A stretch of 64,000 bases of DNA, from NCBI GenBank assembly GCA_009885795.1, contig VFKA01000010.1, positions 4,695 through 68,694 of the forward strand. The letters run 5' to 3'. Shown here piece by piece: positions 12,426 through 62,728 of the stretch; the first letter of the stretch is position 1; every line of letters begins with the position of its first letter. A program made the position numbers and the translations under genes. Below the pieces are notes generated by a model, which made no database searches, had not been told where the DNA came from, and was given only the letters and a program-made list of their open reading frames with translations. Origin of the DNA: Rhodospirillales bacterium. Lineage in GTDB: Bacteria > Pseudomonadota > Alphaproteobacteria > Dongiales > Dongiaceae.

Positions 12426-12474
12426 GGCGCCGGCTGTGTCGAATGCGATAGCCCCGCAATTTAGGGGGGCCGCC

Positions 12475-41202: not shown

Positions 41203-41255
41203 GGGCCCGTAAGCCAATAAGCGATTCGATTTGAGCCGTGGGACGCCAAGTAAAG

Positions 41256-41398
41256 CTGTCGTCGCCGGGCTTGACCCGGCGATCCATCGGCGTCGCACGC
41301 GTGGTGATGCGCCCGATCGCAATGACGACCGGCGCGATTCTCCCGGCGAAGTTGCCGACTTTCACCATGGATCGCCGGGTCAAGCCCGACGATGACAA
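41256..41398. repeat. MITE-like unit: two Family C repeats in inverted orientation flanking about 75 bp
   Basis: tgtcgtcgccgggcttgacccggcgatccat (41256..) versus the reverse complement of ccatggatcgccgggtcaagcccgacgatgacaa (..41398), which is ttgtcatcgtcgggcttgacccggcgatccatgg. Confidence 0.7.
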
Positions 41399-41472
41399 TT
41401 GGGAGGTAGCGCGGGACAACATGAATCGAAAAGAACGGGACTTCCATCGCTTATTTTCTGACAAACCCTAAC

Positions 41473-45798: not shown

Positions 45799-46739
45799 GC
45801 GGCCAGGCGGCGGGCGCCGGGAACGGCGAGCTCGAATCCGCCTTCGCGTTCGAAACGGTCGAGCGACGGCGCCACGCCCCTGACCTCGACCGCGAGGCGC
45901 CAGCCATTGGGCTCGCGCGCGACCCGATAGAGATGGTAGCGGGCATGGTCCTTGCCGCGATGCGGCCGCGCCGAGGCGGACGGTACGCCAATCGCCGGCG
46001 CGGTGCCGAAGGGCGTGTCGAGCTTGCCTAGCACCGACAGGTGGGTATGCCCGAATATCACCAGTTCCGCCCCGGCCCGCGCCACGACCTGGCGGAACGC
46101 TTGCGAATCGAGAAGCCGCTTGCGCCGGCTCGCGGACCCCGCCAGGGGCGGATGATGAATGAGCACGACGCGAAAAAGGTCGCGGGTGCCCAGCCGGGCG
46201 AGAGTGTCCTCCAGCGCCTGCAACTGCGCCGGTCCGACGCGCCCGGCCGCCATGTGCAAGGGCATGGGCCGAGCCGTCGATACGCCGACGAGGGCAAGGG
46301 GACCTCGCAGCCGGACGAAGGGGAATCCCTCGGGGCCTGGGACCGGGCGCTCGGCGCCGTCGAGCGTGCTACCCAAGCCGGTCATGTTGCCGCTCCAAAG
46401 CCCGACGGACCGATCCCAGGCAACCGGAACGTAGGCATCGTGGTTGCCCGGAACGACCGTCACGGTCCCGGGCTCGCCCAGCGATGCCAGCCACCTTGCC
46501 GCACGCTCGAACTCCTCGGGCAGGGATATATTGGTAATGTCGCCGGTGATGGCGATGTGGTCCGGCCGCTGGCGTGCCAGATCCTCCACCAGTGCCGGCA
46601 GAACCGGGCCTTCATGCACCGGGCGTCGGCGGACCATCCAGGAGATCAGCCCGAGACAACGCTTGTTCAAGAGATCGCCGAGGGCCGGCCAGCCCATATC
46701 GCCGAGATGCGGGTCGGAAAGATGCGCGAGAGTGAACAT
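45795..46739 (-). CDS. metallophosphoesterase (calcineurin-like)
   Basis: 314 aa with motifs LSDPHLG, ITGDITN, VPGNHD, and GHTH in FGHTHLS. Confidence 0.8.
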   Translation of the reverse strand: MFTLAHLSDPHLGDMGWPALGDLLNKRCLGLISWMVRRRPVHEGPVLPALVEDLARQRPDHIAITGDITNISLPEEFERAARWLASLGEPGTVTVVPGNHDAYVPVAWDRSVGLWSGNMTGLGSTLDGAERPVPGPEGFPFVRLRGPLALVGVSTARPMPLHMAAGRVGPAQLQALEDTLARLGTRDLFRVVLIHHPPLAGSASRRKRLLDSQAFRQVVARAGAELVIFGHTHLSVLGKLDTPFGTAPAIGVPSASARPHRGKDHARYHLYRVAREPNGWRLAVEVRGVAPSLDRFEREGGFELAVPGARRLAA

Positions 46740-46784
46740 TTCGCTTTATACAATGCCCGAGGCGATATATGCGGTCGTTCTTGT

Positions 46785-46855
46785 CTTGGACATGGCCGAA
46801 GGTCAAGGTTTCTTTGATTCTACCGGCTTCTAGAGGGTTACTTGGACATGGCCGA
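46785..46855 (+). promoter_or_regulatory. perfect 15-bp direct repeat duplicating the start-codon context; the upstream copy opens a 13-codon uORF
   Basis: cttggacATGgccga at 46785..46799 and 46841..46855. The first ATG (46792) gives MAEGQGFFDSTGF-TAG (46792..46833). The second ATG (46848) starts the CDP-alcohol transferase gene. Confidence 0.6.
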
Positions 46856-48026
46856 CGCACGCGACAAGGACGGCGGGCCAAGCGCCTGGATCGTGGGAAA
46901 GTGCGACGTCGCCCTTTGGGGACTGGACGCAACCTTACGCTGGCGGCGCTGTCTTGGCCGCGCGGGTGTCACTGCCTGCCAAGTGGAACCGGCGCCGATC
47001 GAGGCCGCCGGTCGGGTTCTGCTCGTGCGCGCCGATGCCGTGGCGCAAGAGAGCCTGGTCCAGGCCCTGGTCGCGTCCCCCGATACCGTCCTCGCGCTTT
47101 CCGGGGCAGCGGATTCAAGCTGCGTGCCGCTGGCGGCTCATGTGCCGGCCGATCTCGCGGGCTTCGTCGCCGGCGCGATGCGGCGCGGTCGGTGCGAGAC
47201 CGCCGAACTCGCCGGGCGCGGCCTCGCGGTAAAAGATCCCGATGAGCTCGGATCGTCCTATCACCATGCGCTGCGAAAGCGCGCCGCGCCGTTCGCGATG
47301 CTGGTGACGGCGGCTTCGGCGCCGGACATCGAACGGCGCATGTTCGCCGCCTCGTATAAGGGTGTCACCGATCTGGTCACGAAATGGCTGTGGCCGGTTC
47401 CGGCGCGCTGGGTGACGGGTTGGGCGGCGCGGCGCGGCATTTCCGCCAACGCGGTCACCTGGCTGAGCCTCGTCTTCGTCGTCTTGGCCTGGTGGTTGTT
47501 CGCCGCCGGCGAATTCGTTCTCGGCCTCGCCGCGGCTTGGGCGATGACGTTTCTCGACACCGTCGACGGCAAGCTGGCGCGCGTCACCCTGACTTCCAGC
47601 AAGTTCGGCGACGTCTTCGACCATGGCATCGATCTGTTGCATCCGCCGTTCTGGTACGTGGCCTGGTGGCAGGGGCTTGCCGACGGAAGCCCGGCGCTGG
47701 CGGCGGCGATGTGGATTGTCGTTGCCGGCTACATCCTCGGCCGGGTCATCGAAGGTTGGTTCATCTGGCGGTTCAAGTTCGAGAGTCACGCCTGGCGGCC
47801 GATCGATTCGCGATTCAGGCTGATCACGGCGCGGCGCAACCCGAACCTGATCCTGTTGACGGTCGCCGCGATCCTCGGCCAACCGGCATTCGGCTTGGTC
47901 GCGGTTGCGGTGTGGACGGTTCTGTCGCTGATATTTCACCTCGTCCGGTCGGGGCAGGCCGAGGCGGCGAACCGGCGCGGCTCGCCGCCGCGTTCGTGGC
48001 TTACGGAAGCAGCGCCGCCGGCATGA
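46848..48026 (+). CDS. CDP-alcohol phosphatidyltransferase family protein with soluble N-terminal domain of about 170 aa
   Basis: Family motif DTVDGKLARVTLTSSKFGDVFDHGID, i.e. D-x2-DG-x2-AR-x8-G-x3-D-x3-D, in a polytopic C-terminal half. No family recognised for the N-terminal domain. Confidence 0.8.
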   Translation: MADARDKDGGPSAWIVGKCDVALWGLDATLRWRRCLGRAGVTACQVEPAPIEAAGRVLLVRADAVAQESLVQALVASPDTVLALSGAADSSCVPLAAHVPADLAGFVAGAMRRGRCETAELAGRGLAVKDPDELGSSYHHALRKRAAPFAMLVTAASAPDIERRMFAASYKGVTDLVTKWLWPVPARWVTGWAARRGISANAVTWLSLVFVVLAWWLFAAGEFVLGLAAAWAMTFLDTVDGKLARVTLTSSKFGDVFDHGIDLLHPPFWYVAWWQGLADGSPALAAAMWIVVAGYILGRVIEGWFIWRFKFESHAWRPIDSRFRLITARRNPNLILLTVAAILGQPAFGLVAVAVWTVLSLIFHLVRSGQAEAANRRGSPPRSWLTEAAPPA

Positions 48027-48988
48027 TGCGCGTCGGTGTCATCTCGAATCCGCGCAGCCGGCGCAACCGCGATGGCATGGACAAGATCCGCGCCGTGCTT
48101 GCCCGCCATGGCGACATCGCGCATGCGGAATTGAGCCGCATGGCCGAGTTGCCGGCGGCGGTTCGCCGGTTCGCCGATTCGGGCGTGTCGCTGGTGGTCG
48201 TGAACGGCGGCGATGGAACCGTGCATGCCGTCCTCAGCGAAATCTTGAACGGCGTGCTTCTCGCCGATCCGCCCCGGCTCGCGGCCTTGCCATCGGGCAT
48301 GACCAATCTGATCGCCGTCGATGTCGGCCTCGCCGGGCGGCCGGACCTGTCGCTTGCGAACCTTTTGTCGCGGGTCCGCGACGGCGGCGAACTGACGGTC
48401 CGGCGCCGGCCGGTCTTGTCGTTGACGCCGGCGCCGGGCGCGCGGGCCAGTCATGGCATGTTCTTCGGCACCGGCGCCTTCTATCGCGCCGTCATGGCCA
48501 GCCGCCGGCGCATCCATCCGACCGGTGTCCGGCACGATCTCGCCACCGCCCTCTCCGTCGGATTGTTCATCGCCGGAATGTTGCTGCGTCGTTCGTCGCC
48601 CGGTTCGCCTTATCGCGGCGACGGCATGACGATCCGCCGGGATGGTGGGGTCGCCCGAACCGGCACTCATCTCGGAATGGTCGCGACGACCTTGGAGCGG
48701 CTTTCCATGGGCCTCGACCCGTTCTGGGACGGGACCGAGGGCCCGATGCGCTACACCCTGCTGCCGTTTCCGCCCCATCGCTTCGGCTCGGCCATGGTGC
48801 CGATTCTTCTCGGGCGGCCGCTCCCGTGGATGGCGGGGAAGGGCTATGAGAGCGGGCGGGCGGCCGAGCTCGCCTTTACGATCGACTGCCCGCTGGTGCT
48901 GGATGGCGAGGTGTACGCGGCGCCGACGGGCGCGCCGGCGGTGCTTCGCGCCGACCGCGAGGTCGAGTTCGTGACCATTGATGGATGA
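48023..48988 (+). CDS. lipid kinase, DAGK-catalytic/LCB5 family (candidate ceramide kinase)
   Basis: Start MMRVGVISNPRSRRN (ATGA overlap with the upstream stop). Has the VVVNGGDGTVHAV motif. Confidence 0.7.
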   Translation: MMRVGVISNPRSRRNRDGMDKIRAVLARHGDIAHAELSRMAELPAAVRRFADSGVSLVVVNGGDGTVHAVLSEILNGVLLADPPRLAALPSGMTNLIAVDVGLAGRPDLSLANLLSRVRDGGELTVRRRPVLSLTPAPGARASHGMFFGTGAFYRAVMASRRRIHPTGVRHDLATALSVGLFIAGMLLRRSSPGSPYRGDGMTIRRDGGVARTGTHLGMVATTLERLSMGLDPFWDGTEGPMRYTLLPFPPHRFGSAMVPILLGRPLPWMAGKGYESGRAAELAFTIDCPLVLDGEVYAAPTGAPAVLRADREVEFVTIDG

Positions 48989-49907
48989 GATATCGGTGAC
49001 CGACGCCCGGCAAGACATAGACCGCCTGATCGCCGCGGAGATCGGCTTGTCCGTCGCGGCATCGGTGCGCGCGGCGGCCGACGACATTCGCGCCCGGTTG
49101 GGCGGACACGCGCGAGCGATCCTTTTTTATGGATCGTGCTTGCGCCGGGGCGGCGATCCGGCGGAGGACGATGATTCGGTTCTCGATTTCTATGTGCTGG
49201 TCGAGGGCTATGCCGACCTCTATGACAACCGCCTCCTGGCGCTCGCCAACCTGCTCCTGCCGCCCAACGTCTTCTACGCGGAGGTGCCATGGCAGGGGCG
49301 GAGCCTGCGCGTCAAATACGCCATCGTTTCCGAAGCCTCGTTCCGGCGCGGCTGCACGAGCCGTAGCTTGCATTCGTTGCTGTGGGGCAGGTTCGCGCAA
49401 CCCGTGCGCCTGGTGTACGCGCAAGACGAGCCGGCGCGGCGCAATGTCACCGATGCGCTCGGCGACGCGGTCGTGACGCTTCTAGCGGCCGCGCTGCCTC
49501 TGGTGCCGGCGGATGGTTCGGCCTTGGAACCATGGACTCGCGCGCTCGAGGAAAGTTATCGCACGGAGTTGCGGACGGAACGCGCCGGCCGGGCCGGGGA
49601 CATCGTCGCCGCGGATGGCGCGCGCTACGCGGCCTTGACGCCGCTGGCGATGACGCTCGCGCGTCCCGTGTCGCCGGCGCGCGCCCGCGCGCTCTGGGCC
49701 TTGCGGCGCGCGATCGGCAAGCCGATGAGCGTGGCGCGGCTGGCGAAGGGCGTCTTCACCTTCACCGGGGGCCAGAGCTACATTCTGTGGAAGCTTCATC
49801 GCCATTCGGGCGTGACGCTGGCGCCCACACCCTGGCAGCAGCGCCACCCGCTGCTGTCGGCGCCGGTCTTGGCCTGGCGCCTCTATCGCCGCGGCGCCTT
49901 TCGCTGA
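48981..49907 (+). CDS. Tam41/Mmp37-like nucleotidyltransferase (mitochondrial-type phosphatidate cytidylyltransferase family)
   Basis: About 308 aa. ILFYGSCLRRG...LDFYVLVEGY, NVFYAEVPWQGRSLRVKYAIVSEASF, LLWGRFAQPV and ESYRTELR align block by block with yeast Tam41 as I recall it (FGYGSGVF, GVYFNPF..VKYGVVS, YLAGRLQKPV, LSYAGDIR). Overlaps the kinase stop by 8 nt. Confidence 0.6.
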   Translation: MDEISVTDARQDIDRLIAAEIGLSVAASVRAAADDIRARLGGHARAILFYGSCLRRGGDPAEDDDSVLDFYVLVEGYADLYDNRLLALANLLLPPNVFYAEVPWQGRSLRVKYAIVSEASFRRGCTSRSLHSLLWGRFAQPVRLVYAQDEPARRNVTDALGDAVVTLLAAALPLVPADGSALEPWTRALEESYRTELRTERAGRAGDIVAADGARYAALTPLAMTLARPVSPARARALWALRRAIGKPMSVARLAKGVFTFTGGQSYILWKLHRHSGVTLAPTPWQQRHPLLSAPVLAWRLYRRGAFR

Positions 49908-49979
49908 CCCTTCTCCAGATCCGTGGCGGTCATTCTAGGTGTCATTGACACATATGCCGTTGACGCATATATTGCGGCC

Positions 49980-50318
49980 ATGTCGATCGTGACCGTTGTC
50001 GAAACGCTGGAATTTCAGCGCCGGGCCGACGAACTCATGAGCGATGAAGAACGCCAGGAAATCATCGACTTCATCGCCCGCAACCCTGGTGCCGGCGTTT
50101 CCATCGAAAGCGGCGTGCGCAAGGTGCGTTTTGCCCGGAAAGGCGGCGGAAAGAGTGGCGGCTACCGGGTCGTCCATTTCCATGGCGACGACGCGAGGCC
50201 AATCTTCCTGCTGACGGTGTTCGCGAAGAACGATAAATCGGCCCTGACCCGATCGGAGACGGACGCGATCAGAAAGCTAGGCAAGGTGCTGTCGGATACC
50301 TACGGGAGACCAAGATGA
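49980..50318 (+). CDS. RelE/ParE-superfamily toxin (Gp49/HigB-like)
   Basis: Start MSIVTVVETLEF within ORF 49923..50318. Contains ...GGYRVVHFHGDDARPIFLLTVFAKNDKSALT. ATGA overlap with the antitoxin. Confidence 0.75.
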   Translation: MSIVTVVETLEFQRRADELMSDEERQEIIDFIARNPGAGVSIESGVRKVRFARKGGGKSGGYRVVHFHGDDARPIFLLTVFAKNDKSALTRSETDAIRKLGKVLSDTYGRPR

Positions 50319-50608
50319 GCAAGGCATTCAAGAGCATCGAGAGAGGCCTCAAGGAGGCCATCGCCCATGCCAAGGGCACGCGGCTCGGCATCATCCACGA
50401 GATCGATGTACCCAAGCCGGACGTGTCGGCGATCCGGGCGAAGACCGGATTATCGCAGGCGGTCTTTGCCAAGAGCATCGGCGTCAAGAAGGGCACGGTC
50501 TTGAACTGGGAGCATCGGCGCCGATCCCCGGACGGCCCGGCCCGCGTCCTGCTCGCCCTGATCGACAAGGATCCGAGCATCGTCCAGCGCACCCTCGCCC
50601 GGCGCTAA
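50315..50608 (+). CDS. XRE-HTH antitoxin (HigA/NadS-like)
   Basis: 97 aa with GLSQAVFAKSIGVKKGTVLNWEHRRRSPDGPARVLLALI. Confidence 0.75.
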   Translation: MSKAFKSIERGLKEAIAHAKGTRLGIIHEIDVPKPDVSAIRAKTGLSQAVFAKSIGVKKGTVLNWEHRRRSPDGPARVLLALIDKDPSIVQRTLARR

Positions 50609-50638
50609 CCGGCGCGGGCGCCTTTCGCCGACCTTCGG

Positions 50639-51856
50639 TCAGGCGACCGCAGCTTCGGAGGGCGCTTCGAGCAGGCCGGTCGCATAAGCGACGCCGGTGA
50701 GCGCCCGGATGATGGTCTCCAGTTGTTCGCGGTCATGCGCGGCGCAGACGCTGCAACGCAGCAGCGCCGTGCCACTGGGTGTCGCGGGCGGCAGCGCCAG
50801 GTTCATGTAGACGCCGGCATCGAGCAGCGCCTTCCACACCGCCACCCCCATCTCGGCGCTCGGCAGATGCACGGCGACGACCGGGCCCTTCCGCGGTCCG
50901 AGATCGAAGCCTTGCCGCTGCAACCCGTCATAGAGAATGCCGACGTTCGACCACAGCCGCGCGCGCAACTCCGGGTGCGCGACCATGACCTTAAGCGCGG
51001 CCCGAACCGAGGCGACGATGGAAGGCGGCAGCGATGCCGTGAACATGTAAGGGCGGCTCACAACTCGCATGATGTCGAAGTCGGGATGATCGGACACGCA
51101 ATAGCCGCCGATGGCCCCAAGGCTCTTGCTGAAGGTACCGGTGATAAAATCGACGTCGGCTTCGAGGCCCTCGGCCTCCGCGAGGCCGCGCCCGGTGCGC
51201 CCGAGCACGCCCATCGAATGCGCTTCGTCGACCAGGAGATAGGCGCCGTGACGGCGTTTCACCTCGACGAATTCGGCCAGCGGCGCCTGATCGCCCAGCA
51301 TGCTGTAGATGCCTTCGGTGACGATGATCTTGTTGCCGGGCTTGCCGGCCAGCCGCGCCAGGCGCTTGTCGAGATCGGCGGCGTCGTTGTGCCGGAAACG
51401 AATCACGGTGGCCTGCCCCAGGCGCGACGCGTCGTAGATGCTGGCGTGGCAATCCGCGTCCAGCATCAGAAAATCGTCCGGTCCGGCGATCGCCGATATG
51501 ACGCCTAGATTGGCCTGATAGCCGGTCGTGAACACCATGCAGTGCTTGCGGCCGTAAAACGCCGCCAGTTCGTCTTCGAGCAATTGGTGCCCGTCGTAAC
51601 TGCCGTTGGCGATGCGCGAGCCGGTGGTCCCGGTGCCGAACGATTCCGCCGCTTCCGCGGCCGCGTCCACGCAGGCGGCGTCGAAGGTCAGGCCGAGATA
51701 GTTGTTGGTGCCGGCGAGGATGGTGTAGCAGCCATTGACGATGGCCTCGGTCGGCGACAGCACCTGATCCATCTTGACCGCGAATGGCTCGGCGCCGCTC
51801 GCGCGAAACCGCGCGCAGACATCCTTCTGTACCTCGTAGCGATCGAACAGGCCCAT
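50639..51856 (-). CDS. spt: serine palmitoyltransferase (alpha-oxoamine synthase family)
   Basis: Start MGLFDRYEV (or GTG at 51865) within ORF 50639..52171. PLP-lysine motif GTFSKSLGAIGG, plus LGTNNYLGL-type, DEAHSMG and PPATP...LLRCS motifs. It resembles Sphingomonas SPT end to end from memory and has a dedicated ACP immediately upstream. Confidence 0.8.
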   Translation of the reverse strand: MGLFDRYEVQKDVCARFRASGAEPFAVKMDQVLSPTEAIVNGCYTILAGTNNYLGLTFDAACVDAAAEAAESFGTGTTGSRIANGSYDGHQLLEDELAAFYGRKHCMVFTTGYQANLGVISAIAGPDDFLMLDADCHASIYDASRLGQATVIRFRHNDAADLDKRLARLAGKPGNKIIVTEGIYSMLGDQAPLAEFVEVKRRHGAYLLVDEAHSMGVLGRTGRGLAEAEGLEADVDFITGTFSKSLGAIGGYCVSDHPDFDIMRVVSRPYMFTASLPPSIVASVRAALKVMVAHPELRARLWSNVGILYDGLQRQGFDLGPRKGPVVAVHLPSAEMGVAVWKALLDAGVYMNLALPPATPSGTALLRCSVCAAHDREQLETIIRALTGVAYATGLLEAPSEAAVA

Positions 51857-51861
51857 ATGCG

Positions 51862-52122
51862 TCACGCCCCCCCTTTGATCCGCGCCACCGTGGCCGCCAA
51901 ATCGGCAACCGAGTGGATCTCCGGCACCAGATTGAGCGGGATCGAAATATCGAACCGCTCCTCCAGCTTCATCATCAAATCCATCACCGCCAGGGAATCC
52001 AGATTGAGATCCCTGGCGATATCCGTCTCTCCGGTAATGGATCCGCCCGCCTGGCGGAACGGCTCGAGAAGTTCGATGACTTGGCCGATAAGCGCTTGTG
52101 CTTCTTCCCGCTGGCCACTCAT
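51862..52122 (-). CDS. acyl carrier protein (sphingolipid-dedicated type)
   Basis: Start MSGQREEAQ within ORF 51862..52212. Phosphopantetheine site DLNLDSLAVMDL. Confidence 0.8.
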   Translation of the reverse strand: MSGQREEAQALIGQVIELLEPFRQAGGSITGETDIARDLNLDSLAVMDLMMKLEERFDISIPLNLVPEIHSVADLAATVARIKGGA

Positions 52123-52241
52123 CCCCATCTCCGCCGCAACGCCACCACGCGGCTGAACCCGCGTTTCCCACCGAATCATAGCCCGGCGCCCGGCCCCCAC
52201 TACCAAGCGCACTTATCCGGAATCGCAGGGCAAAGCTGAAA

Positions 52242-52266
52242 TAACAAATTGTTACAGATTGTTACA
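52242..52266 (-). promoter_or_regulatory. AT-rich palindrome/tandem repeat between cerR-like gene and acp
   Basis: TAACAA-A-TTGTTA perfect palindrome (52242..52254) overlapping tandem ATTGTTACA x2 (52248..52256, 52258..52266). It is a local AT island in a GC-rich genome. Confidence 0.4.
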
Positions 52267-52304
52267 AATAGGTTCTAACCCAGCCGGCCGGCGCCTTCCC
52301 GGCC

Positions 52305-53252
52305 TCAAAGCCATCCGGCGGCGCGATACCAGGCGACGGTCTCGCGGAATCCCTCGGCGACCCCGATTCGCGCCCACCAGCCCAGCTCCGCCAGCAACCG
52401 GTCCTCGCGGCAAACCCAATCCGGGTGGCGGACTTCCCTCAGCTTGCCCGGCGTCAGGGTCGGCGTCCGGCCCGCCAGCCGCGCCAGCGCCACCGCCAGC
52501 CCGGAGGCCAGAACCTGGACCGGCATTGCCACCGGCACGGAAATCGGACTCCTACCGACGGACTGGGCGCCGAGCGCCACCAGTTCGGACCAGCCATATC
52601 CGCCACGCCGCCCATCGTCGATCTCGATGATGGCGCCGCCGGGGTTGAGCCGTTCGAGGACGGTCACCACGGCCGCCGCCAGATCGGCCACATGAAGGAA
52701 CGACAGCCGGGCGCGCTTTGGCGCCGGCAACAAGACCCAGCCATTCCCGATGCAGCGAAAGAACAGCAGCGTCTCGCGGTCGCCGGGGCCGTAAACCACC
52801 GGTGGCCGCAGCGCGGTCCAGCGCAACCGCCCGCCCTGTGCCGTCAAGGCCTCCTCCGCCGCGCTCTTGCTTGCGGCGTAGGGGGAAATCCCGGGCTCGC
52901 GCGCGGCCAGCGAGGACATGTGGAGAAAGTGAGCCGACGGCGCTTGGCGAACCGTCGCGGCGGCAAGGGCGGCCGTTCCTTCGGCATTGACCCGGCGGAA
53001 GTCGGCGCGCCGCCGGGCCTTGACCAGGCCGGCGCAATGCACGACGGCGTCGGCGCCGATCACGAGTTCTTCCAGGCTGGCGGGATCGCCGAGGTCGCCG
53101 ATCGCCACGTCAAGCGTGAGCCCGGCAAAAAGCGGTCCGGCCGGGATGCGCCGGCTAAGGATGCGAACCCGCCACCCCGCCGCCGCCAGGGCCGCGACCA
53201 CGTGACCGCCGATGAAACCGGTGCCGCCGGTGACGGCGACGAGGCGCGGCAT
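52305..53252 (-). CDS. NAD(P)-dependent epimerase/dehydratase-family reductase (CerR-like candidate)
   Basis: 315 aa with VTGGTGFIGGHV Rossmann motif. Starts 3 nt after the stop of the upstream ligase. The functional call rests on synteny with spt/acp. Confidence 0.65.
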   Translation of the reverse strand: MPRLVAVTGGTGFIGGHVVAALAAAGWRVRILSRRIPAGPLFAGLTLDVAIGDLGDPASLEELVIGADAVVHCAGLVKARRRADFRRVNAEGTAALAAATVRQAPSAHFLHMSSLAAREPGISPYAASKSAAEEALTAQGGRLRWTALRPPVVYGPGDRETLLFFRCIGNGWVLLPAPKRARLSFLHVADLAAAVVTVLERLNPGGAIIEIDDGRRGGYGWSELVALGAQSVGRSPISVPVAMPVQVLASGLAVALARLAGRTPTLTPGKLREVRHPDWVCREDRLLAELGWWARIGVAEGFRETVAWYRAAGWL

Positions 53253-53255
53253 GGA

Positions 53256-55025
53256 TTAGCGCCCGGCGGGGGCCGAAACGGCCAGCTTCCGGTCGTCGCC
53301 GCCAGGCGGAGAGCCATGGAGGCCGGCGAGGAAGTCGGTCTTGGCCTTGCCGCGGCTGAGCTTGCCCGACGAGGTTTGGGGCAGGGCATGGGGCGCCACC
53401 AGAACGACCTCCGTTTCAACCGCGAAAGACCGGCGCAAGGTCGCCGACACTTCGGCGGCCAGCGCCTGTCGGGCCGAGGGCTCGATCAGGCGGCATTGCA
53501 CGAGAACGACGACATGCTCGCCGGCATCGTCATCCTCGACCGAAAATGCCGCGGCATCGCCGCGACGCAAAGCCGGTATTTCCTCGACCGTCCACTCCAG
53601 GTCTTGCGGCCAGATGTTGCGGCCGTTGACGATGATGAGGTCCTTGGCACGGCCGGTGATGACGATCTGGCCATCGACGAGGTAGCCGAGGTCGCCGGTA
53701 TCGAGCCAGCCCCGATCGTCGAACACTTGGCGCGTTGCTTCCGGCTCGTTGAAGTAACCGGCGGTGATGCTCGGGCCCTTGGCGAAAATCCGCCCTAGCC
53801 TGCGCTCCGGCAGACTCTGCCCGTCGGCCCCACGGACCTCGATATGATGGCCGCCGAGCGGGCGCCCGCACAGAACGAACTCGCGCGAGCGTGTGCCATC
53901 GCCGTCGCCCGCGGGCTCGGCGATCTTGTCCTCGGCCAGCCGGCGGCGGTCGACGCGGTCGAGCAGGACGCCGCGGTCGAGGGCCGAGAAGCTGAGCGCC
54001 AGCGTCGCCTCGGCCATGCCGTAACTGGGCACGAAGGCCTCGGCGCGAAAGCCGTAGGGGCCAAAGGCCTCGGCGAACCGCGCCAGGATACTCGGGCGTA
54101 TCATGTCGCCGCCGATGCCGGCGACGCGCCAGCGGCGAAGGTCGAGTCCCATTGCCGATGCATCGGCAGCGCGGCGCGCGCAGAGCTCGTAGCCGAAGGA
54201 CGGGCTGAAGGCCAAGGTGCCGCCATGGCGCGAAAGAAGTTGCAGCCATGTCAGCGGCCGGCGCGCGAAATCCCGCGTGGTCATGGTGTCGACCGACATC
54301 TGCGCGAAGAGCGGCGTCAGCAGGAACCCGACCAGCCCCATGTCGTGATAGAGCGGCAGCCACGACGCGCACCGGTCGCCGGGAACCATCCTAAGACCAT
54401 CGACGACGATGGCGCGGCAATTCGCCGCCAGCGCGCGCTGGCGGATATCGACCCCGAGCGGGAACCGCGTGCTGCCGGAGGAGTATTGCAAGTAACTCGA
54501 CTCGTCGGGCCCGAATGGCCGCGGATCGACGCCGCCTTCGGGCAAGGCCTCGAAATCGGCGGGCGATCCGACCAGCGCCAGTCCCAGCCCCGCGCCGGCC
54601 TCGCGCAAATAGTCCATGAGTTCCGGCGGCGCCATGGCGGCGCTTGCGCCCGAACCTTCGATCTGCCGGCGCAACGCGCCGATATAGGCATCCTTGCCGC
54701 CAAGCCCGATCGGCAGCGCGACCGGGACCGGCAGAATGCCGGCGTACTGACAGGCCATGAACATGATGACGAAGGACGGGTCGGTATCGGCCAGCATCAG
54801 GAACCGCGCGCCCTTGGCTAGGCCGGCCCGGATCAAGCGGCGCGCTTGCGCCACCGCCAATTCGCGCAGCTCCGCATAGCCGAGTGCCCGCGCCAGTTCC
54901 CCGCGCACGGAGAAGAAGTTAAGCCCGGTTCGTCCGCGCGCGGCGTAATCCAACGCTTCCGCCAGCGTATCGAACGCGGCGGGGCGAAGGGGCAGGGTGT
55001 CGTTGGTTGATGGTGTCGGGTCCAT
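53256..55025 (-). CDS. fatty-acyl-AMP ligase / acyl-ACP synthetase-like (AMP-binding family)
   Basis: ORF 53256..55091 (start 55091 or MDPTPSTNDT at 55025). AMP-binding motif LQYSSGSTRFP and C-terminal ...TSSGKLSR. Confidence 0.75.
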   Translation of the reverse strand: MDPTPSTNDTLPLRPAAFDTLAEALDYAARGRTGLNFFSVRGELARALGYAELRELAVAQARRLIRAGLAKGARFLMLADTDPSFVIMFMACQYAGILPVPVALPIGLGGKDAYIGALRRQIEGSGASAAMAPPELMDYLREAGAGLGLALVGSPADFEALPEGGVDPRPFGPDESSYLQYSSGSTRFPLGVDIRQRALAANCRAIVVDGLRMVPGDRCASWLPLYHDMGLVGFLLTPLFAQMSVDTMTTRDFARRPLTWLQLLSRHGGTLAFSPSFGYELCARRAADASAMGLDLRRWRVAGIGGDMIRPSILARFAEAFGPYGFRAEAFVPSYGMAEATLALSFSALDRGVLLDRVDRRRLAEDKIAEPAGDGDGTRSREFVLCGRPLGGHHIEVRGADGQSLPERRLGRIFAKGPSITAGYFNEPEATRQVFDDRGWLDTGDLGYLVDGQIVITGRAKDLIIVNGRNIWPQDLEWTVEEIPALRRGDAAAFSVEDDDAGEHVVVLVQCRLIEPSARQALAAEVSATLRRSFAVETEVVLVAPHALPQTSSGKLSRGKAKTDFLAGLHGSPPGGDDRKLAVSAPAGR

Positions 55026-55122
55026 GATCGGCGATGCGGAAAGACGGGGGCTCGGATCGGCCGGCGCCGGTGCCCTCTTAGCAAATTCCATTGCCGCGCC
55101 ACAAGCGGATTGGCCGATTGAA

Positions 55123-55192
55123 GTGCCTCATGGTGAGGAGTCGGCGAAGCCGGCGTCCTCATCCCGAGCTTGTCCAGGGACGAACCATGAGA
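55123..55192. repeat. Family A/B intergenic repeat
   Basis: gtgcctcatggtgaggag...gtcctcatcccgagcttgtccagggacgaaccatgag. Confidence 0.7.
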
Positions 55193-55206
55193 CCGCGGTC
55201 GCGGAT

Positions 55207-56973
55207 TTAAGAGGCGGCCACCCGAATCGCCGCCCGCGGCATCTCGACGACCCGTTCGTCCTGAATCTGGTACACGCGGTCGGCCATGTCGACCCAGGCC
55301 GGCTGATGGGAAATGGCCAGCAGCGTCAAGCCGCTACGCTCCGACAGTTCGCGCAGGTTGCGGCAAATGGCGGCCTCCGTCTCGGGATCGAGCGCGCTGG
55401 TCGCCTCATCGAGGATGATGAGCGTCGGCCGGTGAATGAGCGCGCGCGCCACCGCAATGCGCTGACGCTGGCCGCCCGACAGAAAGCCGCCGCGCTCGCC
55501 GATGATGGAATCGATGCCCTCCGCGAGCCGGGACACGAAATCCCATGCCCCGGCGGCCTCGAGCGAGGCCTTGGCATCCTCCCGGGTGAGCGCCGGATCG
55601 TCGAGCGTGACGTTGGCGAGCACGGTGTCGTGAAAGAGGATGACTTCCTGGGGGACGTAACCCACCATCCCGCGCCATTGCAGAAGATCGACGGCGCGCA
55701 AGGAGCGGCCATCGAGACGAACGTCGCCGGAATCCGGTTCGTACAGCCCGAGAATGAGATCGGCGATCGTCGTCTTGCCGGCGCCCGACGAGCCGATGAT
55801 GGTGGTGACCTTGCCCGCGGGGATAGTCAGGCTGACATCGGCGAGTACCTGCTTCGCGCCGAAGGCAAAGGAGACGCGGTCGAATTCGCAGGCGCGCGCG
55901 AGGCTCGGCGTCTCGCTTCCGGCCAGCGTCTCTCGGGCTTCCCTGGCCTCGGCGATCGTGTCCAGCATGTTCCAATAGGCGGTCTCGTGAATGGCGGCCG
56001 ACTGGAAGTCGAGCTGGGCCTTGCCGACCGCGGCCACGGTGCGGGTGAGCAGCAATCCCATGACGATCAGCTCGGCAACCGGCAAATGCCAAACGGTGAT
56101 CGCGACGTACAATGCGCCCGCGAGAAATATGCCGATCATGGGCTCTTGCAGATTGCGGGCGGCCTGCTTGCCGAAGACTTGCTTCCGCAGGGCGGTGTTG
56201 AGGTCGCGCAGATAGCCCGCGAACAAGATGCCAAGCTGCAGGTGCTTGGTCATGGCCTTCAGCGCCTTGATCCCGCCGAGCAAGTCGGTCAACCGCGCCA
56301 CCAGGGTCTGCGTGTGGCGAGTCTGCTGCTTGCCGGCCCGCCGCGAGAGATTGACGACGCGATTGAGCGCCAGGATCATGACCGATCCGATGACCGCGGC
56401 GAGCAGGCACAGCTTCCAGGAAATAAGGAGCGCCAGCAACAGGTAGACAACCGTCTGCACCGAGCCCGCGATCAGCAGCGAAACCGACAGGAACGCCTGC
56501 GAGGCGCGCGTGGCCTCGCCGCTGATGGCGTTGGCGAACCGGCCGATCGGCTGTTTGGTGAAATAGCTCCATCGGACTTCGAGTAGCCGCTCGACCAGGC
56601 TGAGCCGCAAGCCCGTGGCGATTTCGGCGACCACGTAGCCGACGTAGTTCATGGTCAGCAGTATCAACGCCGACTTGGCCAGCAGCCCGAAAACGACAAT
56701 CAGCAGCAGAACCCCGATATCGACCGGCAGGCCGAGCGCGCCCAAGACATCGGTGACGGCGCTATGGATGGGCGATTGATCGGTGCCGGCGTCGCCCGCG
56801 GCCAGACTGAGGACGGGAAGCAGGCTGGCGATGCCGACGCCCTCGGCCAGGCTGGCGAGCAGCAGGCAGCCGACCACAATGTATTGGCGCCGGGGCGCGA
56901 TGCCGCGAAAGATGGCCAGCACACCGCGTCGGGGCGTGGCGATCGGAGGCGTCGATGTGGCGGGGTGACGCAT
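55207..56973 (-). CDS. ABC exporter, fused TMD-NBD (MsbA-like type I exporter)
   Basis: 588 aa with a six-span N-terminal half, Walker A GSSGAGKTT, signature LSGGQRQR and Walker B LIILDEATS. Confidence 0.85.
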   Translation of the reverse strand: MRHPATSTPPIATPRRGVLAIFRGIAPRRQYIVVGCLLLASLAEGVGIASLLPVLSLAAGDAGTDQSPIHSAVTDVLGALGLPVDIGVLLLIVVFGLLAKSALILLTMNYVGYVVAEIATGLRLSLVERLLEVRWSYFTKQPIGRFANAISGEATRASQAFLSVSLLIAGSVQTVVYLLLALLISWKLCLLAAVIGSVMILALNRVVNLSRRAGKQQTRHTQTLVARLTDLLGGIKALKAMTKHLQLGILFAGYLRDLNTALRKQVFGKQAARNLQEPMIGIFLAGALYVAITVWHLPVAELIVMGLLLTRTVAAVGKAQLDFQSAAIHETAYWNMLDTIAEAREARETLAGSETPSLARACEFDRVSFAFGAKQVLADVSLTIPAGKVTTIIGSSGAGKTTIADLILGLYEPDSGDVRLDGRSLRAVDLLQWRGMVGYVPQEVILFHDTVLANVTLDDPALTREDAKASLEAAGAWDFVSRLAEGIDSIIGERGGFLSGGQRQRIAVARALIHRPTLIILDEATSALDPETEAAICRNLRELSERSGLTLLAISHQPAWVDMADRVYQIQDERVVEMPRAAIRVAAS

Positions 56974-57107: not shown

Positions 57108-57233
57108 CTCTTTCGAGACGCGCCCTTGGCAGGGCGCTCCTCAAGATGGGGAAAGCCAACGACAAGCCTCATGGCGAGGAGGCTGCGGCAGCTTCCGTCC
57201 TCATCCCGAGCTTGTCGAGGGACGCACCATGAA
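57108..57233. repeat. Family A/B intergenic repeat (long composite copy)
   Basis: ctctttcgagacgcgcccttggcagggcgctcctcaag ... cctcatggcgaggaggctgcggcagcttccgtcctcatcccgagcttgtcgagggacgcaccatgaag. Confidence 0.75.
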
Positions 57234-57328: not shown

Positions 57329-58606
57329 ATGACGATTCAATCGGCCTGGAGCGAGACTCGGGTCAAAGCGATGCTCGCGGCGTATAGCTTCCGCTATCAG
57401 AACGTGGAGCTGCCCTACGGCCTGCAAACCGGCGGCAATGACCGTTCGCCGACGGCGAACAGCATCTTCCCGGCGGACATGACCGGAAAGTCCGTGTTCG
57501 ATCTCGGTTGCATGCACGGCTATTTTCTGTTCGAGGCGGAGCGGCGCGGCGCTACGAGGATCTTCGGCGGCGATATCAACCCCGAGAACGTCGCCAAGTG
57601 CAAGATGCTTGCCGACTGCAAGGGTTCGCGGGCGGAGTTCGCGAAGTTCGACATCGAGCGGGACGCGATCCCCGGTAAGTTCGACTACGTGCTCTGCCTC
57701 AACGTGCTGCATCACTTGCGCAATCCTCTGGCGGCGCTCGAGAAGCTCATCGACGCGACCAAGGAATGCCTGGTCCTGGAAGTGGCCGCCTTCAACAAGA
57801 AGGCGCGGAATGAATCCTGGGTGCCTTACTGGTTCGGCGGACTGCTCAACCGCCTGCCCATCTTCTATGTCGGCGGGGCGAGCCGGGACGCCAAGGGAAG
57901 CCGCGGTTTTTTCATGACCGAGAGCGCCATCGTCGCGCTTCTCAACCACCACCGGCGCGATTTCGCGCGCGTGAAGATCGTGCATGTCGGCGGCCAGAAA
58001 GGGCTCGGCAAGGGGCGGTTCATCGCCATCGCGCCCAAGCGGCGGATCGAGCATCTCCATATTTTCGCCGGCACGAACACGATAGGAAAATCGACTCTGC
58101 TCGAGAGTTTCCGGCGCGGCGAGAACCCGCTTGTCGCCGAGAAACTGGGTCTGGGTCCGGTCGCGGATTGGCGCCACCAGATGTACAACAAGCTGCCCCA
58201 GGCGCCGGAAGCCGAAATGCCCCACATGCTGCTCGAATACAACATCGGCAAGTATCTGTTCGACGGCCCGCTGCATCACTACGAGCGCGGCGTGCTGGAC
58301 CTCATCAAGGTCGCGGAAAAAGTGACCATTACGACGTTCTGGCTGCGGCCCGAAATCTTGCATGAGCGCTACATGACGCAGCGCGTGCCGGAATCGTGGT
58401 TGAAACGCCGCCTGCGGTCCTCGCGCCGGCGCCGGATGGAACGCAAGCTCGGTGCCCTCTATGCCGATCCGGCCCGTTTCGAGGCGATGTATCGCGATTG
58501 GTTCGCGTTCGCTCGCCGGCACGCCGCCGTCAACCACGTCATCCTGCAGGAAAACGGCTATCGTGTCGTATCGATCGAGGATTGGGAGCGTGGCGAGCGC
58601 GGCTGA
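57329..58606 (+). CDS. fusion protein: class I SAM-dependent methyltransferase + P-loop domain of unknown function
   Basis: Start MTIQSAWSE within ORF 57272..58606. Motif I VFDLGCMHGYF and post-I FGGDINPE. The C-terminal half has Walker-A-like FAGTNTIGKSTLL. Confidence 0.6.
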   Translation: MTIQSAWSETRVKAMLAAYSFRYQNVELPYGLQTGGNDRSPTANSIFPADMTGKSVFDLGCMHGYFLFEAERRGATRIFGGDINPENVAKCKMLADCKGSRAEFAKFDIERDAIPGKFDYVLCLNVLHHLRNPLAALEKLIDATKECLVLEVAAFNKKARNESWVPYWFGGLLNRLPIFYVGGASRDAKGSRGFFMTESAIVALLNHHRRDFARVKIVHVGGQKGLGKGRFIAIAPKRRIEHLHIFAGTNTIGKSTLLESFRRGENPLVAEKLGLGPVADWRHQMYNKLPQAPEAEMPHMLLEYNIGKYLFDGPLHHYERGVLDLIKVAEKVTITTFWLRPEILHERYMTQRVPESWLKRRLRSSRRRRMERKLGALYADPARFEAMYRDWFAFARRHAAVNHVILQENGYRVVSIEDWERGERG

Positions 58607-59615
58607 GAGGGCGCCGTCCCGCGGTTTCCTGGGGATGGTGCTGGCCATCGTCCTCGGGGTCGCGCTGTCCGCGGGGGTGCTGGAGCTCGCCGTGCGTTTC
58701 GTGCTCGATGACGGGCTCAATTTCGATCTTGAGATGTGGAAATACGCCAAGGACCTGAAGGCGGTGAGTCCTACGCCCGGCGTCGGGCACGAGCATGTTC
58801 CCGACACATCGGGGATCTACATGGGCGTTCCCGTATCGATCAACTCGGCGAAACTGCGAGACCGGGAAATGCCCCTGGCCAAGCCGGCGGGTATGATCCG
58901 CATCGCCATGGTCGGCGATTCGTTTACGTTCGGTTGGGGCGTCCGGGTGGAAGATACGATGGCGAAAATGCTGGAAGCGAAGTTGAACGCCGGATTGCCC
59001 GCCCCGCGCTTCGAGGTCGTCAATTTCGGTGTCGGCAACTACAACACGTCCATGGAGGTCGCCTCGTTCCTGCACGATGGGTACCGGTTTCAGCCGAACG
59101 TCGTGATTCTCAACTATTTCATCAATGACGCGGAGGAGACGCCCAAGCGCGGCAACAACGTTCTCGCCGAACACTCATACGCCGCCGTCTACATCGCCGG
59201 ACTCGTCGACGTTGTGATGAGGACATATTTCGGCAAGAGCGATTGGCGCGCCTACTACGACGGCCTCTACGAAACGGACGCGCCCGGATGGCGGCGCGCC
59301 CGGCAAGCGATCGCCGATCTGGCCGGCTTCTGCCGCGAGCGCGGCATCGGGCTGCTCGTGGTCAACCTGCCCGAGCTCCACCAGCTGGACCCCTATCCCT
59401 TCGAACGCGTGACCGCGGCAATCGGCGCTCTGGCCGCGAAAGAGCGCGTGCCCTTTCTCGATCTGCTCCCGGCGATACGCGGCCATGAGCCATTGAGCCT
59501 TTGGGTGACGCCGACCGACCCTCACCCCAATGCGACCGCCAACCGGGCCTTTACCGACGCTATTGCGGCGAAGCTTGGCGCGGATTTTCCCGATTTGGCG
59601 ATCGAGGGCGATTGA
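58590..59615 (+). CDS. SGNH/GDSL hydrolase-family protein, N-terminally membrane-anchored
   Basis: GTG 58590 (or ATG 58635) within ORF 58452..59615. Block I MVGDSFTFG, block III GVGNYN, block V DPHPN. Confidence 0.7.
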   Translation: MASAAERAPSRGFLGMVLAIVLGVALSAGVLELAVRFVLDDGLNFDLEMWKYAKDLKAVSPTPGVGHEHVPDTSGIYMGVPVSINSAKLRDREMPLAKPAGMIRIAMVGDSFTFGWGVRVEDTMAKMLEAKLNAGLPAPRFEVVNFGVGNYNTSMEVASFLHDGYRFQPNVVILNYFINDAEETPKRGNNVLAEHSYAAVYIAGLVDVVMRTYFGKSDWRAYYDGLYETDAPGWRRARQAIADLAGFCRERGIGLLVVNLPELHQLDPYPFERVTAAIGALAAKERVPFLDLLPAIRGHEPLSLWVTPTDPHPNATANRAFTDAIAAKLGADFPDLAIEGD

Positions 59616-59630
59616 CCCGAGGCCGGGCGG

Positions 59631-60764
59631 TCACTTTTTCCACGCCGCCTTGAGCATCTCGACGAGCTTGGCCGTGCCGATCGGCGACAGATGTCCCTGG
59701 TTCACATAGAGCGGCAATCCGCCGAAGGGCGACCCCGCTTCCTCCCGCGCCGCGTTGGTGGCGTCGAGGAAATCGACGACCGTGAAGCCCGCTTGCCTCG
59801 CGGCATCCAGAACCGCGCGCTTCTCCTCCCGGAAATAGGGAAAGTCCCAATGGCTGTGGCCGCGGACCCGCATGACGTCGGGCGCCGCATTGTAGATCTT
59901 CGGCAAATAGACAAGCGTCAGGCGGTCGAGCGCGTTTCGCTTGGCGAATTCGGACAGAAAGGGAATGAGTTCCTCCGGACGGCCGTAGGGCTCGCCCGGC
60001 GCGTGGTCGTTCTCGGAGAAGAAGTAGACGACCTCGCGGATGCCGCCCGCATATCGCCGTTCGGCGCGTTCGAGCATGCAGACATTGTCCTTGGCGGCGG
60101 CGCCGTTGACGCCGATGTTCACGTATTGCCGGGTGTCGTCTCGCGCCTGCAGCTGCGAGGCGAGGGTCTCCCAGTCGTTCACCATCGAACCGTTGGCGAT
60201 GCTGGACCCGGTCACGAGCACCTTGCGCGGCGACTCGACAGAGGGAAGCGTCAGGCGCTCGCCCTCGGCGTTGCTCCGGTGTCGAATTTTACGGAAGGCA
60301 TAGCGGTCCAGGAACTGTTGGAGACGCGGCGGCAGCACCCTGGCCGTGTCGTAGAAGGCGTTCATCGGGTCGAAGCTATTGAACAAAGTCGATCGCAAGA
60401 GAACCATGGTCTTGTCGATATTGGGACGCTGCGACCAGCAGCCGTCGATCTCGATATTGGCGCTGGCTGCTTCCGTCTTGAGTTCGGCATAGGGCGCGTT
60501 GCCGAGGCCGACGCCGTTGGCCTTCATGTCGTCGATCATCGATTCGAGTTCGTCCAGACTCGAAATCGTCAGCAGCCTGTCGTCGGCCGGCAGTTCGGCA
60601 TCGCTTCGCTTTTGGTCCTTCAAGAGATTACTGACGAACCAATAGGTGACGCTGGTGTCCGGCTTCTTGAGCCGTGCGACGGCATAGAGACCCTCGCCAG
60701 CCAACAGGATGACGACGAGGACCAGGACGACAGTCATCGCCGCGAAGAGGTGCTGCTTGCGCAT
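59631..60764 (-). CDS. membrane-anchored hypothetical protein, possibly SGNH/AlgX-like fold
   Basis: 377 aa with an N-terminal TM anchor. Weak GDS-like VTGSSIANG and C-terminal NQGHLS. Coding frame is clear; function is uncertain. Confidence 0.4.
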   Translation of the reverse strand: MRKQHLFAAMTVVLVLVVILLAGEGLYAVARLKKPDTSVTYWFVSNLLKDQKRSDAELPADDRLLTISSLDELESMIDDMKANGVGLGNAPYAELKTEAASANIEIDGCWSQRPNIDKTMVLLRSTLFNSFDPMNAFYDTARVLPPRLQQFLDRYAFRKIRHRSNAEGERLTLPSVESPRKVLVTGSSIANGSMVNDWETLASQLQARDDTRQYVNIGVNGAAAKDNVCMLERAERRYAGGIREVVYFFSENDHAPGEPYGRPEELIPFLSEFAKRNALDRLTLVYLPKIYNAAPDVMRVRGHSHWDFPYFREEKRAVLDAARQAGFTVVDFLDATNAAREEAGSPFGGLPLYVNQGHLSPIGTAKLVEMLKAAWKK

Positions 60765-60774
60765 GAACGTCTCT

Positions 60775-62603: not shown

Positions 62604-62636
62604 AGCGTATTCACGCTGGCTGGAGATATCATCCTA

Positions 62637-62678
62637 CCCCTGTCGCCCCGGCGAAAGCCGGGGCCGGTATGACAATGC
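62637..62678. repeat. Family C-like repeat
   Basis: cccctgtcgccccggcgaaagccggggccggtatgacaatgc (hairpin CCCCGGC/GCCGGGG). Confidence 0.6.
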
Positions 62679-62728
62679 AACGGGAAAGCCGGATGGAGAG
62701 ATTCCAGTCAGCGCGGAGCCGCTCCGAA

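Follow-up and report, generated by a model that had tools for sequence, protein, structure and literature searches.

In Caulobacter crescentus, the genes for sphingolipid synthesis form a 17-gene locus, CC_1152-CC_1168, which corresponds to ccna_01210-01226 (PMC11324152, PMC9393093, PMC13228409, bioRxiv 10.64898/2026.04.12.717747). Two gene groups of such systems have been described as operons: a dedicated acyl carrier protein (ACP), AcpR, is encoded directly upstream of the serine palmitoyltransferase (SPT) gene spt in one operon (PMC9386255), and CCNA_01217-01219 form the three-gene operon for CpgA, CpgB and CpgC, which are a PgsA-like transferase, an LCB5/DAGK-like kinase and a protein without recognisable domains, respectively (PMC9393093). 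Across alpha-, beta- and gammaproteobacteria, spt co-occurs with acpR and aasR (PMC9386255), the whole cluster for CPG2 synthesis is conserved in other proteobacteria (PMC11324152), and a four-gene operon ending in SPT serves as an explicit marker that has been found in some Rhodospirillales (PMC10411912). Here we examine such an operon at positions 50639-55025 of a 64,000-nucleotide stretch (hereafter the window) of contig VFKA01000010.1 from a Rhodospirillales bacterium of the family Dongiaceae (assembly GCA_009885795.1). The original prediction had taken these four genes for the ceramide core pathway in the content and order defined in Caulobacter. Our analysis indicates that the region is very probably an aasR-cerR-acpR-spt operon lying within a complete Caulobacter-type sphingolipid locus (40459-56973) of an uncultured alphaproteobacterium.

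The region contains four intact open reading frames (ORFs) on the minus strand. In the order of the operon, they are aasR (53256-55025; 589 aa; Pfam AMP-binding), the first gene, which encodes an adenylate-forming enzyme predicted to be a fatty acyl-AMP ligase or acyl-AcpR synthetase; cerR (52305-53252; 315 aa; Pfam Epimerase/NAD_binding_10), for a Rossmann-fold protein, a putative NDUFA9-like short-chain dehydrogenase/reductase (SDR) acting on a 3-keto ceramide; acpR (51862-52122; 86 aa; Pfam PP-binding, PF00550), for the dedicated ACP with its DSL phosphopantetheine site; and spt (50639-51856; 405 aa), for a protein of the class-II aminotransferase fold, the predicted SPT of the Caulobacter type. 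The ligase begins 181 nt from the ABC exporter gene that precedes it, 3 nt separate the ligase from the reductase, 182 nt the reductase from the ACP and 5 nt the ACP from the synthase. The run of ligase, 3-nt gap, reductase, ACP and synthase on the minus strand was thus as predicted, with correct coordinates. For the ACP, the predicted DSL site is present in the motif DLNLDSLAVMD, but the start had to be corrected to 52122 (MSGQ...), following the call on identical public contigs. The exact proteins of the window were found in NCBI and Logan assemblies, and the genes are therefore not assembly artefacts of the window.

For comparison with Caulobacter, 8-kb genomic pieces were retrieved using the spt forward primer given in the supplement of PMC11087976, and these were searched by tblastn and BLASTP. 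Nine genes of the window were matched directly to Caulobacter sequence, at 34-62% identity, and the reverse search from Caulobacter hit only the assigned window partners. Each of the four operon genes is the sole mutual match of spt, acpR, cerR or aasR (CC_1162-CC_1165), in the order that had been claimed and in the same orientation; the synteny extends further, as aasR-cerR-acpR-spt is convergent with cpgA-cpgB-cpgC in both organisms. Four related genomes were also compared: Rhodospirillaceae bacterium SYSU D60014 (GCA_003576685.1; L091), the metagenome-assembled genome (MAG) GCA_964411425.1 (L092), a Logan contig (L099) and a JGI contig of 3.9 Mb (L100). They have in common the series ABC exporter-aasR-cerR-acpR-spt, followed by cpgC-cpgB-cpgA (except in L100), the phosphoesterase gene and lptF2-lptG2. 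Gene content, order, orientation and orthology, as well as the conservation of catalytic residues described below, are demonstrated by these comparisons, and from them we infer the enzymatic activities, the expression and the actual lipid product.

The identity of the synthase is central to this reading. It scored 655.5 bits against NF047599, the NCBIfam equivalog model for serine palmitoyltransferase (cutoff 500), and the Spts of Caulobacter and E. coli B, which have been characterised biochemically (PMC9386255), also pass this model and show the same pattern against the other NCBIfam models. Its identity to Caulobacter Spt is 62% (tblastn against the genomic pieces; E 1e-164). A threshold of E 5e-68 to Caulobacter SPT has been published for telling Spt apart (PMC10411912), and the window protein falls under it; the database searched here was small, but the bit score of about 500 far exceeds that of other alpha-oxoamine synthases. 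In the PDB, the best matches were the SPTs of Sphingomonas wittichii (462 bits) and Sphingomonas paucimobilis (441 bits; 2jgt/2x8u), at 52-53% identity over about 375 residues, which bears out the whole-length likeness to the Sphingomonas enzyme noted in the original prediction; weaker matches were Sphingobacterium SPT (280 bits), Kbl (about 200), BioF (about 187) and ALAS (about 172). The predicted GTFSKS motif around the lysine that binds pyridoxal phosphate (PLP) is present as GTFSKSLG, and Lys244 in it is aligned to K265, which is the PLP lysine in the S. paucimobilis enzyme. Alignment to 2jgt and 2x8u showed that the rest of the catalytic set is also kept, with H137, D210, H213, K244 and an arginine of the window protein corresponding to H159, D231, H234, K265 and R390.

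Two positions depart from the Sphingomonas enzyme. Its Arg378, which binds the substrate carboxylate, is a leucine in the window Spt, and its Tyr73 is an asparagine. The same two substitutions occur in the Spts of Caulobacter, Roseomonas, Pseudomonas and Dongiaceae, and they therefore mark the Caulobacter type rather than a defect. With 496 bits, the window Spt also misses the cutoff of 670 set for the 'AlphaP' Spt model of NCBIfam, and it passes the 'BetaP' model, as Caulobacter Spt does. As a separate observation, Caulobacter-type Spts match the 'BetaP' and not the 'AlphaP' model although they are alphaproteobacterial.

Alpha-oxoamine synthases have their fold and the PLP-lysine motif in common, and the scores of the window protein against the models for bioF (321 bits), Kbl (291), ALAS (210) and CqsA-type autoinducer synthases (191), as well as against a cysteate-C-fatty acyltransferase in the PDB (184 bits), are weaker but significant. 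With a sulfotransferase gene 4 kb past the cluster, this could suggest that the synthase is one of these enzymes, or a cysteate acyltransferase of sulfonolipid synthesis, and that the product of the cluster is not a sphingoid base. We regard this as extremely improbable. The curated cutoffs for bioF (426), Kbl (460), ALAS (339) and the CqsA type (428) are all missed, whereas that of the Spt model is exceeded; the identity to E. coli BioF and Kbl is 29-32%, compared with the much closer relationship to Caulobacter Spt; no genes for biotin synthesis, threonine degradation or haem synthesis lie nearby; and the neighbours of the synthase are orthologues of genes for ceramide and ceramide phosphoglycerate (CPG) synthesis. 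In a neighbour-joining tree of 12 sequences (60 bootstraps, without an ALAS sequence), the window Spt grouped with the SPTs of Caulobacter and Sphingomonas, and E. coli BioF and Kbl fell outside on a long branch, the support values being unreliable at the deepest split, that between the Spts and BioF/Kbl. The statement that the enzyme does not look like BioF, Kbl or HemA thus held both against the models and, for BioF and Kbl, in the phylogeny. The identities BioF, Kbl, ALAS, CqsA and cysteate acyltransferase were ruled out by the curated cutoffs together with sequence identity. The synthase is thus supported as a bacterial Spt, predicted to condense L-serine with an acyl thioester. Its closest homologues, at 70-89% identity, are environmental, and those with names come from Dongiaceae, Rhodospirillaceae and Geminicoccaceae.

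The three other operon products also resemble their Caulobacter counterparts. AasR exceeds the NCBIfam model NF006624 'fatty acyl-AMP ligase' (798 bits, cutoff 600) and is 53.5% identical to Caulobacter AasR (CC_1165) over 570 aa (E 1e-179). Acylation of AcpR, but not of CoA or AcpP, has been shown for the Caulobacter enzyme (PMC9386255), and by analogy AasR of the window is predicted to acylate its cognate AcpR and not CoA or AcpP. AcpR is 40% identical to Caulobacter AcpR over 58 aa (E 2e-11), and it is under the cutoff of all NCBIfam models for the housekeeping ACP (AcpP). It scores 50-58 bits to the AcpRs of Caulobacter, E. coli, Roseomonas and Pseudomonas, compared with 36 bits to a manually entered E. 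coli AcpP sequence; its motif LExxFDISIP is common to the Caulobacter, E. coli and Pseudomonas AcpRs. A small PP-binding protein with the DSL serine, encoded immediately upstream of spt, is the AcpR arrangement.

The reductase, encoded between aasR and acpR, is 41% identical to the Caulobacter vibrioides CerR orthologue (CCNA_01222/CC_1164) over 312 of 315 aa (E 4e-65), and the two are the sole match of each other in both directions. The motifs GxTGFxG (GGTGFIGG), YAASK and the C-terminal WYRAAGWL are kept between them, the first two as in an extended SDR whose NAD(H) site is conserved. The top PDB matches of CerR are NDUFA9-type subunits of complex I (9g83_P, 6x89_A9 and 7ar7_P), which agrees with the published homology of CerR and NDUFA9 (PMC11087976). 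No N-terminal signal peptide was obvious by eye in the window CerR, and the Caulobacter orthologue begins alike. CerR is a predicted reductase of 3-keto ceramide or of 3-ketosphinganine.

The four genes had been correctly named as belonging to the ceramide core, but the fifth ceramide gene had been overlooked. This gene, bcerS, lies 7 kb away at 42273-43436 on the minus strand and encodes a predicted bacterial ceramide synthase (bCerS) of the GNAT type (387 aa; Pfam Acetyltransf_1, PF00583), and the headgroup and transport genes are situated between it and the four-gene operon. E. coli YghO has been published as the homologue of CC_1154, the ceramide synthase of Caulobacter (PMC9386255), and bCerS matches YghO over its full length at 41% identity (E 1e-106); bCerS is also 54% identical to the product of the gene following lptG2 in L100. 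Its C-terminus reads IYEKALA, and the reverse primer for Caulobacter bcerS encodes VYEKAL, the only Caulobacter bCerS peptide compared. As CC_1154 adjoins CC_1155, so bcerS adjoins lptG2. The PDB contained no structures of Caulobacter CpgB, CpgD, bCerS or CerR for comparison. All five genes predicted for ceramide synthesis, as well as those predicted for the ceramide phosphoglycerate headgroup, are thus present in the window.

The wider locus covers 16.6 kb and has counterparts of 14 of the 17 Caulobacter genes, alike in order and orientation. On the plus strand, between bcerS and the operon, are the genes of the putative headgroup operon, in the Caulobacter order and next to spt: cpgA (46842-48026; CDP-alcohol phosphatidyltransferase-like, Pfam CDP-OH_P_transf; 46% identity to Caulobacter, E 1e-89), cpgB (48020-48988; ceramide kinase-like, Pfam DAGK_cat; E 1e-33) and cpgC (48981-49907; 308 aa; 39% identical to the gene found at the CpgC position of Caulobacter, E 7e-53). 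Pfam and NCBIfam gave no match for the CpgC-like protein, and CCNA_01219 (CpgC) has likewise been reported as domain-less (PMC9393093). Beyond cpgA, on the minus strand, lie a CC_1158-like metallophosphoesterase gene (45795-46739; Pfam Metallophos; 41% identity to the Caulobacter gene beside cpgA, E 8e-60) and the paralogues lptF2 (44515-45705, with the start refined from alignments to relatives) and lptG2 (43433-44515), both with the Pfam domain LptF_LptG. LptF2 is 34% identical to a partial C. segnis copy and 51-62% identical to those of relatives, and LptG2 is 50-61% identical to those of relatives; their role in sphingolipid transport is taken from bioRxiv 10.64898/2026.04.12.717747.

Two nucleotidyltransferase genes close the locus on the left. 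The first, CC_1153-like (41473-42276, minus strand; MobA/CofC-like, Pfam NTP_transf_3), is 44% identical to a nucleotidyltransferase of the sphingolipid cluster on Pseudomonas pPNP1, and its position and domain type fit the description in PMC11324152. The second, a cpgD-like cytidylyltransferase gene resembling CC_1152 (40459-41202; Pfam NTP_transferase), was assigned by position and domain type only; its PDB matches include the CTP:phosphocholine cytidylyltransferase LicC, and it is 53% identical to a cytidylyltransferase encoded beside aasR in Roseomonas. In a departure from Caulobacter, it is on the strand opposite the CC_1153-like gene, namely the plus strand. At the other end, upstream of aasR, the minus strand carries the MsbA-like ABC exporter gene (55207-56973; Pfam ABC_membrane and ABC_tran), the positional counterpart of CC_1166 and a candidate sphingolipid flippase, a role taken from PMC11324152; L091 and L092 have genes 61-65% identical to it at the corresponding place.

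Several points weigh against a complete Caulobacter-type locus. Among the scanned ORFs of the window, none had an LptC-like domain that would mark LptC2 (CC_1168), although the gene may lie outside the 64 kb, and counterparts of CC_1157 and CC_1167 are missing from the window; the latter two are considered unrelated to the pathway (PMC11324152). The genes for bCerS, the ABC exporter and the two nucleotidyltransferases are beyond the reach of the 8-kb Caulobacter pieces and were assigned by comparison with E. coli YghO and with relatives, by domain type and by position, and the identity of CpgB to Caulobacter is just 34%. Furthermore, a gene pair for a RelE/HigB-like toxin (49980-50318; Pfam RelE) and an HTH antitoxin (50315-50608; Pfam HTH_3), both on the plus strand, is inserted between cpgC and spt, which shows that the locus has been rearranged. 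This pair is absent from the site in Caulobacter and in all four relatives, and it is a passenger outside the pathway.

The missing LptC2 and the toxin-antitoxin insertion adjoining spt could also mean that, despite the orthology of its genes, the locus is silent or incomplete, or that its product is truncated, such as a ceramide without the phosphoglycerate headgroup or a lipid that does not reach the outer membrane, so that the organism would be no meaningful producer. Of 5426 complete E. coli genomes, 4145 carry the cerR-acpR-spt segment, yet E. coli is not known as a sphingolipid organism, and thus gene presence is no proof of an abundant product. We nevertheless consider this reading improbable. 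All 14 genes are full-length, contain no frameshifts and show the high GC content at third codon positions that characterises coding sequence in this genome; at least four related genomes keep the same gene order, an argument for purifying selection; and a distant LptC2 gene would have a parallel in Sphingomonadales, where pathway genes are scattered (PMC11324152).

For a functional Caulobacter-type locus, a pathway can be proposed in which each step is assigned via orthology to characterised Caulobacter proteins. AasR would adenylate a free fatty acid and load it onto the phosphopantetheine arm of AcpR; Spt, with PLP on Lys244, would then join acyl-AcpR and L-serine to form 3-oxosphinganine. 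The GNAT-type bCerS would attach the amide-linked acyl chain, and the NDUFA9-like CerR would reduce the 3-keto group, yielding dihydroceramide. Published accounts disagree on which of these two reactions comes first: PMC11087976 places acylation before reduction, with CerR in the periplasm, and PMC9386255 places reduction before acylation. For the headgroup, with functions taken from PMC9393093, PMC11324152 and PMC13228409, CpgB may phosphorylate the ceramide to ceramide-1-phosphate and CpgC may add glycerate to give ceramide phosphoglycerate. The CpgD-like enzyme may then provide CDP-glycerate to CpgA for the addition of a second phosphoglycerate, and thus for the diphosphoglycerate form, possibly assisted by the CC_1153-type and CC_1158-type proteins. 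Finally, the ABC exporter and LptF2/LptG2 would carry the lipid towards the outer membrane.

Other described systems resemble this locus in part. The SPTs of S. paucimobilis and S. wittichii (2jg2, 2jgt and 2x8u) share the GTFSKS motif, His159, Asp231, His234, Arg390 and the PPATP loop with the window Spt, and differ in the Arg378 and Tyr73 positions discussed above; in Sphingomonadales, unlike in the window, the pathway genes are not clustered. E. coli B/BL21 has the same five ceramide genes (yghO-aasR-epi-acpR-spt), with its Spt 55% identical to that of the window, and in the E. coli locus compared here (L097) the cerR-acpR-spt segment is flanked by yghO, aasR and lptF/lptG paralogues. In contrast to the window, the examined E. 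coli locus has no annotated cpgA/B/C-type genes or metallophosphoesterase gene, and the bcerS homologue lies immediately upstream of aasR in divergent orientation. The eukaryotic pathway (SPTLC1/2, KDSR and CerS) follows the same chemistry, from serine and an acyl thioester to 3-ketosphinganine, reduction and N-acylation, and Spt is homologous to SPTLC2 (163 bits). However, the bacterial reductase is NDUFA9-like instead of KDSR, the N-acyltransferase is a soluble GNAT protein and not a Lag1/TLC membrane protein, and the acyl donor is a dedicated ACP; these differences have been described as hallmarks of a convergent ceramide synthesis in bacteria (PMC11087976, PMC9386255).

Parts of the locus are also found on Roseomonas and Pseudomonas plasmids. 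As the sphingolipid cluster is plasmid-borne in these genera, as its horizontal transfer to gammaproteobacteria has been proposed (PMC11324152), and as a tRNA-Asn (GTT) gene (40000-40074) stands at the left edge of the locus, immediately left of the cpgD-like gene, the cluster could be a recent horizontal acquisition or a chimera of binning or assembly that is foreign to the host chromosome. This is very improbable, given that GC content (about 65%) and skew are uniform over the window, with the base composition of the cluster equal to that of its flanks, and that REP-like repeats of the host type are found within the cluster as well as in other parts of the window. In addition, a flanking aminotransferase gene is 79% identical to the syntenic gene of the related MAG (L092), and the same contiguous sequence is present in independent Logan assemblies (SRR8670872, SRR8670873 and SRR8670883). 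The locus therefore appears to belong to the host chromosome, and the remaining content of the window is ordinary for a chromosome (ABC and TRAP transporters, acyl-CoA dehydrogenases, a two-component system, Kup and a Kef-type exchanger), with the tRNA-Asn gene as its sole tRNA gene and no rRNA gene. As a side observation among the relatives, L100 has a fatty-acid desaturase gene (11324-12451) in the position of cpgCBA, between spt and the phosphoesterase gene, which suggests lineage-specific swapping of headgroup or modification genes.

The practical value of these results lies in annotation. The expectation that pipelines would give generic names was right for JGI, which labels close Spt homologues '8-amino-7-oxononanoate synthase', and for PLSDB and older RefSeq records, which carry 'aminotransferase class I/II-fold PLP-dependent enzyme', 'NAD-dependent epimerase/dehydratase family protein' or 'SDR family oxidoreductase', 'acyl carrier protein' and 'fatty acyl-AMP ligase'. 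It holds only in part for current RefSeq, which names Spt: in E. coli, the four products are 'spt: serine palmitoyltransferase', 'NAD-dependent epimerase/dehydratase family protein', 'acyl carrier protein' and 'fatty acyl-AMP ligase', and some NCBI records also read 'serine palmitoyltransferase'. The names of CerR, AasR, AcpR, bCerS and the Cpg proteins are still generic. NCBIfam release 20 contains no model naming CerR, bCerS or CpgA/B/C, none of its models reached its cutoff for these proteins, and only Spt has a dedicated model. Moreover, LptG2 exceeds the cutoff of TIGR04408, the model for LptG of lipopolysaccharide (LPS) export (259.9 bits, cutoff 240), and pipelines would therefore mislabel it as an LPS export permease; RefSeq gives this label to the LptG2 counterparts in the Pseudomonas and E. 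coli clusters.

The host had been called an unrecognised sphingolipid producer. This is fair for the uncultured organism itself, but the four-gene operon was already in use as a genomic marker and had been reported in some Rhodospirillales (PMC10411912). The pathway, the operon signature and their wide distribution are already published, and no new question is opened here; rather, one more uncultured alphaproteobacterial lineage joins the probable makers of ceramide and ceramide phosphoglycerate, and the known range of CpgC-type genes is extended past Caulobacterales and Sphingomonadales, the groups in which they were originally described (PMC9393093). Mildly new are this occurrence of CpgC, an AT-rich element upstream of acpR-spt and a loose, unproven association with sulfotransferase and GDSL genes.

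The AT-rich element lies in the cerR-acpR spacer (52123-52304, minus strand). The island reads TATTTGTAACAATCTGTAACAATTTGTTATTTCAG, with the core ACAATTTGTTATTTC at 52238-52252, and the core (G)TTACAATTTGTTATTTC holds the inverted repeat TAACAA-T-TTGTTA. This core is unique in the window and is kept at the same position in L091 (within 9598-9744) and L092 (within 9637-9740); the Caulobacter spacer differs, and the motif of the window and its close relatives was not seen there in that form. (G)TTACAATTTGTTATTTC may be a candidate promoter or operator of acpR-spt, and the TTACAATTTGTTATTTC element could be the operator of a sphingolipid regulator. A scan for promoters and terminators found nothing over shuffle expectation on the relevant strand. 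A separate intergenic repeat of about 65 nt, with the core GACAAGCTCGGGATGAGGAC, has seven copies in the window (55155-55174, 57197-57216, 21465, 21499, 26879, 29041 and 29057), where 0.01 would be expected, and near-identical copies stand upstream of aasR and of the ABC exporter gene. This repeat is a REP-like host element.

Just past the ABC exporter gene lie genes for a GDSL/SGNH-like protein (59631-60764) and a sulfotransferase (60775-61698; PF00685), which adjoin a methyltransferase gene and a second GDSL gene (58452-61698). In L099, homologues of the sulfotransferase and the GDSL-like protein (43% and 46% identity) are embedded in the sphingolipid cluster (5663-6499 and 18425-19567), with the sulfotransferase gene directly upstream of aasR and the GDSL-like gene between lptG2 and a hydroxylase/bcerS pair, and in L092 an unrelated sulfotransferase gene and an ATP-grasp gene follow lptG2. 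It is possible that genes travelling with the locus add further modifications to the Caulobacter-type phosphosphingolipid in this clade, such as sulfation or O-acyl remodelling. We give this a small chance because none of three further sulfotransferase homologues examined lies beside an spt cluster. If it were true, alphaproteobacteria would have a lipid class new to them, a sulfated bacterial sphingolipid.

Two further features of the window stand apart from these genes. At 61841-62746, a LysR-type regulator is split between two frames, with HTH_1 in the ORF at 61841-62746 and LysR_substrate in the ORF at 61917-62603, which reflects either a frameshifted pseudogene or a sequencing error. Distant from the cluster, at 15062-15529, is a gene for an MqsA-type antitoxin.

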